Shown one piece after another: positions 17,267-20,923 of a stretch of 32,000 nt of DNA. The first letter of the stretch is position 1. Each line of letters opens with the position of its first letter. Origin of the DNA: Candidatus Heimdallarchaeota archaeon B3_Heim. Lineage in GTDB: Archaea > Asgardarchaeota > Heimdallarchaeia > Hodarchaeales > Hodarchaeaceae. The stretch covers positions 30,001 through 62,000 of the forward strand of contig NJBF01000019.1 of NCBI GenBank assembly GCA_003144275.1, given 5' to 3'. The translations under genes were made by a program, and so were the position numbers. A model generated the notes under the pieces. That model saw only the letters and a list, made by a program, of their open reading frames with translations. It was not told where the DNA came from and searched no databases.

Positions 17267-18262
17267 ATGCAACGAAAAAAACGAGTACTGCTAACACATA
17301 AAATTCCAGAAATTGGTATCGACCTTCTGAAGAAGCATTTTGAGGTTGTTATATTAGATTCTGAAGGTTCATTAGATATCCAATTGAATAAAATCTTACC
17401 TACCGTTGATTATCTTATCTCTCTTTTATCAGTAAGGATAGATAACAATCTATTAAGAAAGTTTCCAAATCTTAAGGGAATTGCTAATTATGCTGTCGGT
17501 TACAATAATATAGATATCAATGCTGCGATTGAATGTGGTATACCAGTAACGAATACTCCTGATGTTTTAACCAATGCAACTGCAGATCTAACGTGGGGAC
17601 TAATTCTAGCAGTTACACGAAGAATTGTTGAAGGGGATAAAGAATGTCGTCAAGCTACATTTTCAGGATGGGCACCTGAGTACATGTTAGGATATGAATT
17701 ATCTGGGAAAACCCTGGGGATCGTGGGAATGGGGAGAATTGGTACAGCCGTGGCAAAAAGAGGGACTGGCTTTGATATGAAAATTTGTTATCATTCTCGA
17801 ACGAAGTCAAAGGATCTGCCCGAATCAATGAAAGCAGTGCATCTTCCTGATTTAAAAACATTCTTAGAATCTTGTGACATCGTAAGTCTACATGTACCAT
17901 ATACAGACAAAACTCATCACTTTATTGGGGAAAATGAGTTGAACTGGATGAAGAAAAACGCCTTTCTAATTAATACATCTCGTGGGAAAGTGATTGACGA
18001 AGTAGCGTTAATTAACACACTAAGTGAGAGTAAAATTGCTGGTGCAGGTCTAGATGTCTACTATAATGAACCATTAATACCCAAGGGGTTACGTGAATTA
18101 AATAATACGGTACTAACTCCCCACATTGGATCTGCAACAAAACAAGCTCGCGAAGCAATGGCAATCATGGTCGCAGAGAATATTATTGCAATCGAAAAGG
18201 GATTAATACCCCCCAATTTAATACCTGAAATGAAAAAAGAGATTTTGAAAGGAAATCATTGA
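17267..18262 (+). CDS. gyaR: D-isomer 2-hydroxyacid dehydrogenase, glyoxylate reductase/D-glycerate dehydrogenase-like
   Basis: AVGYNNID, TNTPDVLT, GIVGMGRIG, LINTSRG, GLDVYYNEP and TPHIGSAT. Substrate is inferred. Confidence 0.85.
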   Translation: MQRKKRVLLTHKIPEIGIDLLKKHFEVVILDSEGSLDIQLNKILPTVDYLISLLSVRIDNNLLRKFPNLKGIANYAVGYNNIDINAAIECGIPVTNTPDVLTNATADLTWGLILAVTRRIVEGDKECRQATFSGWAPEYMLGYELSGKTLGIVGMGRIGTAVAKRGTGFDMKICYHSRTKSKDLPESMKAVHLPDLKTFLESCDIVSLHVPYTDKTHHFIGENELNWMKKNAFLINTSRGKVIDEVALINTLSESKIAGAGLDVYYNEPLIPKGLRELNNTVLTPHIGSATKQAREAMAIMVAENIIAIEKGLIPPNLIPEMKKEILKGNH

Positions 18263-19950
18263 ACTTTACTTAGATTTCCTTTACAATAGGGGCAAACTCT
18301 GATGCCAGTTTTTCCGATGTCATCATAACAATTCGCACAAACCATTCGTGAACATTGATCACATTGGTAAGCAGAGTCAGTTGAGGGATGCTGCTCATTG
18401 TCTAATTGACAGAAGAAAGATTTTCTTTCATCAGGGAAAAATTTGTGAGAATCGGACTTCTGCTCTACTGGTGTGCCACAATTCTTACAGAAACGACTAT
18501 CTGACTTCAAAGTGTCACCACAGTTTTTACACCATTTAGAATTTGCAGGAGTTGTCGCTTTAGGTGTACCATAGTCACGCCCATGAAGTTTAGCCCCACA
18601 ATTTGTACAAAAGACATCACTAGGCCTGTAAACCGCTTTACATCTATGACACTCAGTCTTTTGAGGTGACGGGGCCGTAGTAGTTGTAGCAGTCTGTGTT
18701 ACTGCTGAACCTGTACTCGTGGCTGCTGCACTTGCACTTTTCTTAGAACTTCTTCGTTGGACTACCGCAATTATGAGAACGAGGACAGCGATAAAGCCTA
18801 TAACGAATAAAACAGGCCTTGCATCCTTCCAGTGGTCTTCGTATGTCACATCTGTATTATACCGAACTTCAAACGAAATGTCTACAGATTCTTCAGAGTT
18901 GACAAATGGATTCATATATATGAAGAAATACCAGGTGCCATCATAGGGCACTGTAAATGTTCCAGATTGTCGATCGTCGACATCCTCAATAAATAAACCT
19001 GGGGGGTCAGCTGCAGAGAAATCAATATTGTCCGTGGCAACATAATCCACCATAAAATCTATCTGAATCGGTGAAGTGGTCGGGTTGTACCATACTAAGT
19101 ACCAATCCTGGGCGTAGGTAACCACAAAGGTATTCTCATAGGGGTCAGAGCCAACGTAGGAATCCTCGGGTATTATTGTCTCCCAATTGTTCCAACGATT
19201 AAGAGCATTTGCATCAGCAACAAAAAATTCTATATCACCGCCTGAGGTTACGTTAAATTGGAAGGTTAATACAGAACCTGGCTTTAAAAAGTACCCAATG
19301 TATTGATAGTCATGATCAGCCTGAACGATCATACTCTCGGAATAGCTACCAGTAAGGTCTTGATCTTGCGGTAAATTCTCAAACGGTTGATCCCAAATAA
19401 GAAACGTCACCGTGGACGTTGCTTCGACGCTATAATCGATTATTTGATCTTCTTTCATCGGTTCCCGTTCATACCAATATTCATTATACCAAATAGTTTG
19501 TGTATCTTGATATGTGACTGTTCCACTTTCATTACTACTAGCAAATGGATAAGGAATGAAAGCCATACTAATCATTGGTAGAATTACGAGTAATGCGATG
19601 ATACCAAGAACTGCGCCACCACCCCAATAAACAGGTGCATAATACCATCTTCGGTATGGATATCCCCACCACCAATTCCAATGCCACCATCGACGATACC
19701 ATGGCCGATAATAACCGCCCCAATAACGTCGATGACGTCTACGATGATAGTTTCTTCCTGGACGAGATCGTGGGGCACGAGAAACAGTTCGACGAGAACC
19801 TGTGCGACCAAAGGGCCGACCTGATCTTCTTACTGATCCTACTCTGAAGCTTCGACTTCCACCTCGGAAACCTCCACCTCTAAACCCACCACCACCTCGA
19901 AAACCGCCCCCTCCACCGCCTCGAAATCCACCGCCACCGCCACGAGGCAT
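18256..19950 (-). CDS. Two-TM membrane protein: RGG/Arg-Trp-Tyr N-terminus, acidic ectodomain, double zinc ribbon and RING-like C-terminus (564 aa)
   Basis: Start moved from 20001 to ATG 19950, which has a GAGGAGG SD inside the end of the upstream gene. TM1 AVLGIIALLVILPMISMAFI, TM2 VLFVIGFIAVLVLIIAVV, and seven CxxC pairs after TM2. Confidence 0.85.
   Translation of the reverse strand: MPRGGGGGFRGGGGGGFRGGGGFRGGGFRGGSRSFRVGSVRRSGRPFGRTGSRRTVSRAPRSRPGRNYHRRRHRRYWGGYYRPWYRRWWHWNWWWGYPYRRWYYAPVYWGGGAVLGIIALLVILPMISMAFIPYPFASSNESGTVTYQDTQTIWYNEYWYEREPMKEDQIIDYSVEATSTVTFLIWDQPFENLPQDQDLTGSYSESMIVQADHDYQYIGYFLKPGSVLTFQFNVTSGGDIEFFVADANALNRWNNWETIIPEDSYVGSDPYENTFVVTYAQDWYLVWYNPTTSPIQIDFMVDYVATDNIDFSAADPPGLFIEDVDDRQSGTFTVPYDGTWYFFIYMNPFVNSEESVDISFEVRYNTDVTYEDHWKDARPVLFVIGFIAVLVLIIAVVQRRSSKKSASAAATSTGSAVTQTATTTTAPSPQKTECHRCKAVYRPSDVFCTNCGAKLHGRDYGTPKATTPANSKWCKNCGDTLKSDSRFCKNCGTPVEQKSDSHKFFPDERKSFFCQLDNEQHPSTDSAYQCDQCSRMVCANCYDDIGKTGIRVCPYCKGNLSKVQ
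19830..19947 (-). repeat. Low-complexity GC-rich repeat encoding (G)nFRGG units
   Basis: Translates as RGGGGGFRGGGGGGFRGGGGFRGGGFRGGSRSFR; repeated CCACC/CCGCC motifs on the plus strand. Confidence 0.9.
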
Positions 19951-19954
19951 TTTT

Positions 19955-20923
19955 TTATTCCTCCTCGGGTGTGGCGGACGTTTCGCGGAATACAAGGTCA
20001 CGAGAAACGGCTGCGAGTAGACAAATTATTGCTATAACTGAGAATAACAATCCACCAAAATCAATTTGAGTACTAGAAACACGTAGGACATCCATCAGAA
20101 TGAAAGAAACAAAGAATAGCCATTCTACTATAATTCCTAACAGACCTAATAAAGTACCAATAGCATGCCAATTCCGATTGACTTTAATCATCTTATAATC
20201 TGCATATGCCCATTGGAAAATTGCATAAATGCTTACAAGACCAAGAACGATAAATAAGACCCCAAAGATTGACAAAGAAAGCCATAAAAAGTTAAATTGA
20301 CCTTGGATATCTGTATATCGGATCCAAAAACTAGCCCCACGAACCTCAAAAAGATAGTACGTGGCTGTGAAACCCCCTTGGCTTGCAATCGGTGCTTTTA
20401 GGTAACCAACAATACCTATAAGGGGAGCAAAAATCCCGAAAAATAGGTATAACACCGACATAAGAATGGTAAAACTATAATTTGCAAATCGTGGATTAGA
20501 AACAGGTATGAGGCCTTTTTGGTCTTCATACTTTTCAGGTAAAAAACCCCAGCAATCAGTTATCGTAGCAACTCCGATAACTTCATTATTTTCTACAACA
20601 GGAACGACTGATACATCTAAATCTCTCATACGAGCAAAAGCATCGGATACTGTTGTACTTTTTGTGACTGGGTCAATTGTGTACATAATCTCGGTTACTT
20701 TTGACTTATCCACAGATAACCCTTCTGCAACCAAGCCAGTTACAATATCAAAATCAGCTATGACGCCCTGATACATATTATCGTCATCAAGGACAACCAA
20801 ATCAGGAATTCCTTTTTCCTTCATTTTTAATGCCGCTTCTTGTACTGAGGCATTGGCTGAAATTGTATCATACTCATCATCAATTGTTAAATCTTGAATT
20901 AAGAACTCTTTTTCTTTTGACAA
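19955..20923 (-). CDS. CBS-pair domain fused to a four-TM membrane domain
   Basis: Two CBS motifs (IPDLVVLDD...GVIADFDIV; VSVVPVVEN...GVATITD) followed by four hydrophobic helices. TTG start with GGAGG SD. Confidence 0.85.
   Translation of the reverse strand: MSKEKEFLIQDLTIDDEYDTISANASVQEAALKMKEKGIPDLVVLDDDNMYQGVIADFDIVTGLVAEGLSVDKSKVTEIMYTIDPVTKSTTVSDAFARMRDLDVSVVPVVENNEVIGVATITDCWGFLPEKYEDQKGLIPVSNPRFANYSFTILMSVLYLFFGIFAPLIGIVGYLKAPIASQGGFTATYYLFEVRGASFWIRYTDIQGQFNFLWLSLSIFGVLFIVLGLVSIYAIFQWAYADYKMIKVNRNWHAIGTLLGLLGIIVEWLFFVSFILMDVLRVSSTQIDFGGLLFSVIAIICLLAAVSRDLVFRETSATPEEE

Follow-up and report, generated by a model that had tools for sequence, protein, structure and literature searches.

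A two-pass Asgard membrane protein with an RGG tail, a GOLD-containing ectodomain and a RING-like finger: a candidate precursor of the membrane E3 ligases of eukaryotes

The origins of eukaryotic membrane trafficking and ubiquitin signalling are being sought in Asgard archaea, and the Hodarchaeales are among the closest relatives of eukaryotes. In the 32,000-nt stretch of Heimdallarchaeal DNA that was analysed here (the window), one gene (18256..19950; this and all features below lie on the minus strand) encodes a 564-residue two-pass membrane protein with 93 homologues, in which an RGG tail is joined to zinc-binding modules, and the question it raises is what such a protein would do at an archaeal membrane. 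The reading frame is real in that the protein is the translation of window positions 18256-19950, with its stop codon at 18256-18258. Its ATG at 19950 lies 5 nt past the stop of the upstream gene and 10-16 nt downstream of a Shine-Dalgarno-like GAGGAGG (19960..19966), which falls within the end of that gene. We preferred this ATG to the GTG that opens a longer ORF at 20001, because the Shine-Dalgarno-like sequence precedes the ATG and homologues begin with MPRGG, and because with the GTG start the gene would run into its upstream neighbour. As for expression, four 151-nt contigs in one sediment metatranscriptomic library match parts of the gene at 95-100% identity, and one further contig comes from another run, probably of DNA; given that these shares are small, that most of the gene is uncovered and that DNA carry-over is possible, we do not take them as a sign of transcription.

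The N-terminal tail (108 residues) contains 27 Lys/Arg, no Asp/Glu and 25 Trp/Tyr/Phe. It opens with a (G)nFRGG repeat holding five RGG (residues 3-31; 19858..19944), continues as a basic Ser/Arg linker (residues 32-74; 19729..19857) and ends in an Arg/Trp/Tyr/Pro-rich juxtamembrane tract with a conserved RPW...YRPWYY.P.Y.GGG pattern (residues 75-110; 19621..19728), so that both the FRGG repeat and the Arg-rich, Trp/Tyr-rich segment pointed out in the sequence-only reading are present on the translation. By its clustered RGG/FRGG motifs and its Gly/Arg-rich, acid-free composition, the tail classes as a GAR/RGG box. No other of the 11,634 ORFs of at least 60 residues in the 3.95-Mb genome carries three or more RGG, and at least two are kept in 64 of the 65 N-terminally complete family members, which bears out the conservation on which the earlier reading depended. 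All 65 of these members share the PFGRTG motif of the linker (invariant columns P46 F47 G48 R49 T50 G51 in the homologue alignment). The uniqueness of the RGG tail in the genome and the invariance of the motifs across homologues indicate that these features exceed chance, and the conserved FRGG tail represents a rare archaeal case. More distant members have the same architecture with an Arg/Ser/Gly- or Lys-rich tail devoid of RGG, and a TPR fusion (P0096) that is likewise without the RGG tail retains the Arg/Trp/Tyr tract.

Hydropathy scans place TM1 at about residues 111-133 (19552..19620) and TM2 at about residues 379-398 (18757..18816), the latter being followed directly by QRRSSKK. The Ser/Thr/Ala-rich cytoplasmic linker (residues 399-432; 18655..18756) varies among homologues. 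The loop between them (residues 134-378; 18817..19551) comprises 245-248 residues, with 43 Asp/Glu, 8 Lys/Arg and no Cys. Each of these elements had been named beforehand and could be located in the translation. The accompanying proposal, based on the positive-inside rule, that both termini are cytoplasmic is also supported, since it fits the distribution of charges. The loop is placed outside the cell by secreted Loki fusions, in which a signal peptide and a C-terminal anchor accompany the same domain beside WD40 repeats. In the AF2 model (pLDDT 88.9) this extracellular, acidic all-beta domain is predicted to consist of an outer beta-sandwich into which a GOLD domain is inserted (core at residues about 199-308; 19027..19356), and the suggestion that the loop is a GOLD-like beta-sandwich is thereby supported. 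The likeness to the p24/EMP24 family (PF01105) concerns the fold: the Pfam model EMP24_GP25L gave weak matches only, in 3 of 79 members, and the type-I p24 architecture is absent. The top Foldseek rows for the loop (birnavirus VP2) were discarded as artefacts, with an rmsd of about 16 A. Language-model look-alikes, scoring at most 0.84 and to be taken as leads only, point to archaeal GOLD proteins, with APD proteins at rank 38. In a profile search of the loop against 1.84 billion representatives and in a word-index search, those matches that were checked, or whose source gave a name, were archaeal and had no RING families.

Four CxxC pairs follow the linker (residues 433-495; 18466..18654), together with a conserved GRDYG...TTP connector. 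They had been read as a double zinc ribbon, and the Pfam model DZR (PF12773) agrees, matching at 37.6-45.7 bits against a cut-off of 27.3 (E 2.4e-9 to 7e-12); all eight ribbon cysteines are invariant in 25 homologues. Isolated or low-complexity Pfam matches to Meckelin, New_glue, GLEYA, HypA, FYVE, PHD and C1 were set aside, and an NCBIfam search of the protein gave nothing meaningful.

The protein closes with a two-zinc, RING-like finger cassette ending in an invariant Gln (residues 507-564; 18259..18432). A count on the translation confirmed the spacing given before, C514-x2-D517-x12-C530-x2-C533-x4-C538-x2-C541-x11-C553-x2-C556, with C514 at 18411; there are thus eight metal ligands at RING-compatible distances, and 22 of the 58 columns are invariant across 33 sequences from two protein families. 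The predicted fold is strand-strand-helix, in which ligands 3 and 4 sit in the hairpin, ligand 5 ends strand 2 and ligand 6 opens the helix. Among the best 50 of 48,161 chains compared, about 40 are RING or U-box domains, all of them weak matches, and nothing in the PDB reached E <=0.001 when the C-terminal model was searched with Foldseek. Sequence matches of the finger in the PDB are nearly all RINGs, the top one being aS34 (E 0.0078, for the PDB only). Pfam RING models stay below their cut-offs for this protein (zf-UDP, 19.6 against 27.1 bits; zf-RING_4, PF14570, 15.3 against 27), with best E-values across 39 family tails of 7e-5 and 1.5e-4, respectively; PF14570 matches all 39 tails below threshold. 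In finger paralogues of the same genome, ligand 2 is Cys, Asp or His and ligand 6 is Cys, His or Asp. Under a cross-brace arrangement these two ligands share one site, and the four cysteines of the other site never vary. Also invariant are the Leu of C-Q-L-D, the Pro of C-P-Y-C and the Lys that follows the final Cys, which occupy the E2-contact and linchpin positions of active RINGs. Alignment, model and match lists together support the prediction that the last 58 residues are RING/U-box-like and not a plain zinc ribbon, as the sequence-only reading had anticipated. Neither of the computational outcomes that would have spoken against that reading, plain ribbons at the C-terminus or an RGG tail lacking in homologues, turned up.

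The homologues, sought as a phyletic survey had been suggested, are all Asgard (Hodarchaeales, Loki, Thor, Hermod), and the literature searched contained no paper on the family, which is no proof that none exists. Tail, both TMs, loop and double zinc ribbon are conserved from Hodarchaeales to Loki. The finger was found in the sampled Hodarchaeales lineage, with one borderline match elsewhere; most family members are devoid of it, among them those of Loki, Thor and LC_3, which keep everything else. Judged by this distribution of sequences, the finger is a mobile, lineage-specific and recent add-on cassette, and it therefore cannot be the core function of the family. The same cassette terminates Cache-HAMP sensors and a WD40-TSP3-TM protein, a placement that would fit a signalling-output role.

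What does accompany the family is the upstream gene (19955..20923; PF00571, E 7e-15), which encodes a CBS-pair protein with, by reading of its sequence, four hydrophobic spans. Each of the four full-length homologue loci compared, from two Heimdall-labelled genomes, one Loki genome and LC_3, has a CBS gene coding for 327-335 residues directly upstream, at a spacing of 0-6 nt or with overlap, and other neighbours differ between the loci; the pairing recurs at one distant short family member. The two genes are probably co-transcribed.

Components of a ubiquitin system, for which a check had been proposed, are present in the genome, with 4 matches for E2, 2 for ubiquitin and 5 for ThiF/E1, and a paralogue bearing two such fingers adjoins a Ubl(...GG)-E1-E2 cluster on C57. 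One E1 gene lies at C10:25748-26797 and one ubiquitin gene close by at C10:25309-25551; the Ubl of the C57 cluster is at C57:6696-7025. The C10-type E2 found no match in the sampled genomes (0 of 6) of family f13, which holds most of the full-length members found (28/40). A complex predicted for the C10 E2, one of the four, and the finger scored 0.00 against a mark of 0.32, a result to which we give no weight either way.

The ectodomain points in a further direction. The second row of an ESM-atlas search is a eukaryotic cluster in which 81% of members carry PF16041 and 65% PF16040, i.e. the APD1-4 type; it aligns over 202 of 253 residues (TM 0.58 by query, 0.44 by target, both models being predicted). 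GOLD-only atlas rows align about 110 residues, whereas the APD cluster aligns both lobes, and the APD luminal domain is the sole full-length look-alike of the two-lobed ectodomain outside the family among the predicted models of the atlas. PF16040 matches at the same place in 61 of 79 family loops (E <=1; best E 5.9e-7). The protein studied here (P0001) has a weak match at residues 204-236, its 15.8 bits lying under the cut-off of 27, and relatives reach 26.9 bits and, in G094, 28.1 bits; PF16041 matches weakly in 4 of 79 members. When 201 Asgard genomes were scanned in six frames, PF16040 matched 11 times, twice over the Pfam cut-off; eight of the matches fall on genes that resemble the family along the entire loop, and one more (G094) falls on a short relative. 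The same model had no match in 14 control genomes.

We propose that the protein is one of the two subunits of a membrane module that is conserved in, and specific to, Asgard archaea and encoded by two genes, the other subunit being the CBS protein, and that in the finger-bearing lineage this module acts as a receptor-type E3 ligase, a reading to which we would give slightly less than an even chance. The ectodomain would bind a surface or external ligand, by analogy with GOLD domains that bind cargo or lipid, the CBS partner would add nucleotide or energy-state input, and the RING-like finger would recruit to the membrane an E2~ubiquitin(-like) conjugate from the E1/E2 system that the genome encodes, whereby the module would, as we infer, become a receptor-type E3. 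The finger-less ancestral core, as in Loki, Thor and LC_3, would then be a ubiquitin-independent membrane adaptor, in which the RGG/aromatic tail and the zinc ribbons may form a cytoplasmic binding platform for RNA, protein or anionic lipid. If, however, the finger and ribbons are just protein- or nucleic-acid-binding modules, in the manner of the MAT1 RING or of aS34, the protein would be a non-catalytic adaptor also in the finger-bearing lineage, i.e. a p24-like cargo or surface receptor or scaffold that signals via its CBS partner without ubiquitin transfer. This is a serious contender, if on balance a doubtful one. It is consistent with the many members that keep all else without a finger, with the ribosomal aS34 being the finger's top solved sequence relative, with the failure of any RING Pfam model to pass its cut-off, and with the strongest structural signal being that of the p24-type GOLD domain. 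What speaks for catalysis instead is that the finger keeps the residues with which active RINGs touch E2 (Leu after ligand 1, Pro after 7, Lys after 8), that it occurs in a lineage having E1, E2 and ubiquitin, and that a paralogue sits in the Ubl-E1-E2 cluster.

Eukaryotic RGG boxes bind RNA, and a conserved RGG tail that is unique in its genome may conceivably serve the same end, with the zinc modules docking on the small ribosomal subunit, of whose head the finger's best PDB sequence match is a part; the protein would then tether RNA or ribosomes to the membrane and localise or control translation. We regard this as improbable, given that distant members keep the architecture without RGG, that the Arg/Trp/Tyr tract suits anionic lipid as well as RNA, that no translation genes are linked to the locus, and that the aS34 match is weak and its orthologues confined in reports to Thermoprotei. 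Still more improbable, to the point that we would be surprised by it, is that the C-terminus is simply a third and fourth zinc ribbon with a NOT4-like spacing due to chance, and the APD likeness that of any generic beta-sandwich. Zinc-ribbon-rich proteins are common in archaea, and the RING and APD match statistics are individually weak; however, the invariance of the finger columns across two protein families, a predicted fold that is not that of a ribbon, match lists dominated by RING/U-box domains and the confinement of ligand substitutions to one cross-brace site all argue against simple ribbons, just as the singling out of this family by PF16040 genome-wide, with no control matches, and the alignment of both APD lobes argue against a generic likeness.

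How, then, does the protein compare with known systems? The kinship to NOT4 that had been suggested did not hold up beyond spacing (PF14570 as above; NOT4 5aie, E 2.3). The CNOT4 C4C4 RING likewise has eight ligands and identical x4, x2, x11 and x2 spacers, but the Asgard finger has Asp as ligand 2 (all others being Cys as in NOT4), a second pair of C-x2-C in place of C-x-C and a first long spacer of 12 in place of 13, and Pfam detects no RRM or other NOT4 domain in the protein. The other relative, aS34 (9fhl_a), is a RING-like component of the 30S subunit in Saccharolobus solfataricus with two zincs, and it contacts h33/uS3/uS14 of the head; no E3 activity is known for this ribosomal protein, and its orthologues have been reported from Thermoprotei alone (PMC11698992). 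Unlike the Asgard finger, aS34 is a free 72-residue protein with a degenerate third ligand pair, and the match statistics are weak. In p24/TMED proteins (5azw, 5gu5, 7rrm) and SEC14L2/SPF the GOLD domain is not nested in a second beta-sandwich as it is here, and the Asgard protein is without the coiled coil, type-I topology and COPI/COPII tail of p24/TMED; the family would be a case, conserved across several Asgard classes, of an archaeal membrane protein that displays a p24-type GOLD domain to the outside.

Ubiquitin operons of Caldiarchaeum and Asgard archaea, reportedly described by Hennell James in 2017, Spang in 2015 and Hatano in 2022, are said to include a small RING E3. As here, an archaeal RING-type finger occurs in a genome with ubiquitin, E1 and E2; the RING proteins of those operons are small and soluble, whereas the present one is membrane-anchored, has an ectodomain and lies outside a ubiquitin operon. 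That the Hodarchaeales cassette also ends surface sensors of the Cache-HAMP and WD40 kinds suggests a possible coupling of membrane sensing to ubiquitin-like modification.

This leaves the APD ligases. A published list of proteins combining RING, DUF4792 and DUF4793 has entries from plants, Dictyostelium, fly, fish, human, mouse and Leishmania (PMC8169666). With plants, Amoebozoa, animals and kinetoplastids covered by the literature read, APD ligases probably date back to the last eukaryotic common ancestor. It is conceivable, if unlikely in our estimate, that the Asgard protein is an archaeal equivalent of these pan-eukaryotic membrane RING ligases and perhaps related to their ancestor; sequence and models make it a candidate for such a precursor. 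If so, a membrane receptor-type ubiquitin ligase would predate eukaryotes and could tag membrane proteins for entry into the ubiquitin-ESCRT pathway of Asgard archaea, and the RGG/PFGRTG tail would contribute an interaction of RNA or condensate type, for which no archaeal membrane protein is known. The likeness could also stem from shared GOLD ancestry or from convergence. The finger is a recent addition in one archaeal lineage only, so that the TM-luminal-TM-RING layout may have arisen twice. The finger types also differ, being C-D-C6 in the Asgard protein and, by Pfam annotation, C3HC4_3 in APD; this RING model (PF13920) is not among the matches of the Asgard protein at E up to 1. The RGG tail, the double zinc ribbon and the pairing with a CBS gene set the latter further apart. 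What the two share, in Arabidopsis APD1-4 (PF16040, PF16041 and RING) as in the Asgard protein, is an anchor, a beta-rich luminal or extracellular domain, a second anchor and a cytoplasmic RING-type finger, and to this the family would add a specific likeness, in sequence and predicted structure, to the APD luminal domain.

The gene under study (18256-19950, minus strand) starts at an ATG at 19950 within the open reading frame 18256-20001; this ATG lies 5 nt beyond the stop of the upstream gene (19955-19957), is preceded by GAGGAGG at 19960-19966, and yields a product of 564 aa (P0001) in which every element listed by the sequence-only reading was found. An N-terminal tail of 108 aa (27 Arg/Lys, 0 Asp/Glu, 28 Gly, 25 aromatic) opens with (G)nFRGG repeats containing five RGG (residues 3-31), and two hydrophobic spans (TM1, residues 111-133; TM2, 379-398) enclose a Cys-free loop of 248 aa in which 43 residues are acidic and 8 basic. 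TM2 is immediately followed by QRRSSKK, four CxxC pairs match the Pfam double zinc ribbon (PF12773, residues 433-495) over its cut-off, and an eight-ligand finger, C-x2-D-x12-C-x2-C-x4-C-x2-C-x11-C-x2-C, ends the protein (residues 507-564). The RGG cluster is no compositional accident: the 3.95-Mb genome, translated in six frames, contains 11,634 ORFs of 60 aa or more, and this one alone has at least three RGG; the local rise in G+C (0.43 versus 0.31-0.38) is due to Gly/Arg codons. RNA-library fragments of the gene are present, which do not demonstrate its transcription. A convergent 2-hydroxyacid dehydrogenase gene (17267-18262, plus strand) overlaps its 3' end by 7 nt; two Heimdall-labelled genomes (L017, L018) show synteny for this neighbour and an amidohydrolase gene on the same side, and one of them (L017) also for Orc1/Cdc6 on the opposite flank.

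A word-index search returned 93 relatives, all in Asgard MAGs: those from Hodarchaeales/'Heimdall' are 52-78% identical at full coverage and about 550-565 aa long, those from Loki, Thor and Hermod 33-40% identical and about 485-500 aa long. Every member of the family alignment has the tail, the two TMs, the loop and the double zinc ribbon, and the seemingly low-complexity sequence contains invariant blocks (PFGRTG, RPW, YRPWYY.P.Y.GGG, GRDYG...TP). PFGRTG occurs in all 65 N-terminally complete members and at least two RGG in 64 of these 65, so the RGG tail is conserved in homologs and the objection that it might not be falls away. Because it is invariant, the RGG/PFGRTG/aromatic tail would be a specific docking site rather than mere disorder, with RNA, protein or lipid as candidate partners. 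Distant relatives keep the tail-TM-loop-TM-zinc ribbon layout with Lys/Asn- or Arg/Ser/Gly-rich tails, and a Loki protein (P0096) has zinc ribbons and TPR repeats instead of the RGG part, retaining the Arg/Trp/Tyr tract beside TM1. Full-length matches among 201 sampled Asgard genomes fell mostly into three GTDB families (f1, 8/9; f13, 28/40; f26, 2/3), with none in other families of the class to which the window belongs (for example f2, 0/22).

The charge pattern of P0001 agrees with the positive-inside rule, and Loki proteins with an N-terminal signal or anchor and a C-terminal anchor carry the loop domain (38% identity over 240 aa) adjoining WD40 repeats. Judged from these two features, the loop is extracytoplasmic, which upholds the two-pass topology proposed earlier. 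Its AlphaFold2 model, from 79 loop sequences, is all-beta (pLDDT 88.9), and upon exhaustive structural comparison with 48,161 PDB chains, model residues 72-181 (about 199-308 of the protein) superposed on eukaryotic GOLD domains, as the suggestion of a GOLD-like loop had anticipated. Since the strands flanking this stretch on both sides build a second sandwich in the model, the GOLD domain is nested. Such an ectodomain would bind a surface or external ligand. The same GOLD-in-sandwich arrangement occurs in secreted, C-terminally anchored proteins with WD40/beta-propeller repeats in Loki MAGs (P0082-P0089, P0298).

A CBS-domain gene encoding 327-335 aa lies directly upstream of the family gene in two Heimdall-labelled genomes, one Loki genome and LC_3, with a spacing or overlap of 0-6 nt at these four loci and otherwise varying neighbours; a distant short member in another Heimdall-class family is also abutted by one. 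The partner in the window (19955-20923, minus strand) has a CBS pair (PF00571, E 7e-15) followed by four hydrophobic spans, read by eye. Given this conserved gene order, the two proteins probably form a two-subunit membrane complex, whose CBS partner would sense adenine nucleotides or a related metabolite.

The finger was found (E <=1e-6) in all nine genomes sampled from the family/genus to which the window belongs, in 2-11 copies each, and elsewhere among the 201 in one genome; Loki, Thor and LC_3 members stop right after the double zinc ribbon. Very similar ribbon-plus-finger cassettes terminate Cache-HAMP membrane sensors (cassette identity 63-74%), 118-aa stand-alone, DUF7664 and DUF6884 proteins and one 1,650-aa protein, and more diverged copies occur in winged-helix repeat proteins and in one LRR, one TPR and one WD40-TSP3-TM protein. 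This spread, together with the lineage restriction, makes the finger a mobile output or adaptor module specific to its lineage, and it cannot account for the core function of the family. Cache-HAMP sensors ending in one zinc ribbon and the same finger (P0090-P0093, P0305-P0307; Hodarchaeales MAGs) suggest, by their domain order, a sensor-to-finger signalling architecture.

Across 33 sequences, the last 58 residues of the protein, which make up the finger, contain 22 invariant columns, including C-Q-L-D, H, P, Y-x-C-x2-C-x-R, C-x2-C, C-P-Y-C-x-G-x-L and a terminal Gln. The AF2 model (pLDDT 74) has strands at 527-530 and 536-538 and a helix at 539-547; ligands 3 and 4 sit in the hairpin, ligand 5 ends strand 2 and ligand 6 lies in the first helical turn, a predicted placement that is the RING register. 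Against all PDB sequences the finger profile gave 46 weak matches, nearly all of them RINGs, the best (E 0.0078, whole module) being aS34 of the Saccharolobus 30S subunit, a two-zinc protein likened by its authors to RING E3 domains (PMC11698992). The strongest internal argument comes from same-genome paralogues, in which the D517 position is Cys, Asp or His, the C541 position Cys, His, Asp or Ala, and the four Cys of the other zinc site are invariant: the two variable positions would share one zinc site under a cross-brace, not under sequential ribbons. In RING-E2 complexes, the E2-contact and linchpin residues stand where the finger has its invariant Leu (following ligand 1), its Pro (following ligand 7) and its Lys (following ligand 8). 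The finger is predicted to be RING-like rather than a set of simple zinc ribbons, and is quite likely a RING-superfamily domain of its own subtype. The likeness to NOT4 is confined to spacing: NOT4 appeared among the PDB matches at E 2.3, the NOT4-derived zf-RING_4 matched 39/39 tails, all under cut-off, and we do not read the finger as a NOT4 family member.

As had been surmised, ubiquitin-system genes are present in the genome, with four UQ_con matches over cut-off, two ubiquitin and five ThiF, grouped on contigs C10, C86 and C57. The C10 E2 retains the Phe and Ser-Pro-Ala motifs of RING contact, and on C57 a 586-aa two-finger protein adjoins genes for an E1, an E2 and a protein of 109 aa with a Gly-Gly terminus. 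Circumstantially, this context favours an E3 role, in which the finger would recruit E2~Ub(l) and modify proteins at the membrane in the window's lineage. The main rival is that the protein acts as a non-catalytic adaptor. An E2 of the C10 type occurs in 41/61 sampled Asgard genomes and, within that sample, in 0/6 from f13, the family in which most of the full-length, finger-less members were found, and 0/6 from f10. The ribosome or RNA tether of the sequence-only reading is less probable, hinted at by the weak aS34 match of the finger and by the RGG analogy.

The C57 cluster (G000:C57:5018-10539, outside the window; loci L003, L015, L024) also holds a zinc-finger protein; its 586-aa protein combines winged-helix-like repeats with two fingers of the target's type and weakly matches E3_UFM1_ligase (E 0.0015), and the cluster may encode a Ubl conjugation system, UFM1-like or other. 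A 448-aa protein (G000:C10:30860-32206, minus strand), bordering the ubiquitin-E1-E2 cluster, starts, by eye, with a C-x2-C-x11-C-x2-C-x4-C-x2-C... finger, to which the finger profile gave no score.

RING proteins with DUF4792 and DUF4793 are listed for Arabidopsis, soybean, Dictyostelium, fly, zebrafish, human, mouse and Leishmania (wheat RING survey, PMC8169666), and APD1-4 are described as RING E3 ligases in Arabidopsis pollen development (Luo et al. 2012, as cited in PMC4036515); the Asgard ESP papers that we read mention neither APD nor the P0001 family. In an ESM atlas shape search, a eukaryotic APD cluster (PF16041 in 81%, PF16040 in 65% of members) came directly after the family's own, with a TM of 0.58 by query and 202/253 residues aligned to the loop, versus about 110 residues for every GOLD-only row. 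A six-frame scan of 201 whole Asgard genomes with PF16040 (APD1-4_N), a eukaryote-derived model, gave 11 matches at E <=0.001, two of them above cut-off; eight lie in genes that the family survey of this sample had matched across the entire loop and one more (G094) in a short relative, and 14 control genomes gave none. Shorter relatives in other Asgard families (L062, 904-2145, minus strand, 413 aa; L063, 734-1903, plus strand, 389 aa), each with one zinc ribbon and a tail rich in Arg/Ser/Gly, match it better than P0001, at 28.1 and 22.3 bits over nearly the full model; the gene adjoining the former resembles a group II intron reverse transcriptase/maturase. Single full-length members score 26.5-26.9 bits against a cut-off of 27, and four of the 79 loops match APD1-4_M too. 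P0001 itself, at 15.8 bits, falls far under that cut-off and is not classed as an APD family member, yet 61 of the 79 family loops match PF16040 at the same position (best E 5.9e-7), and we consider it probable that the ectodomain is homologous to the APD luminal domain.
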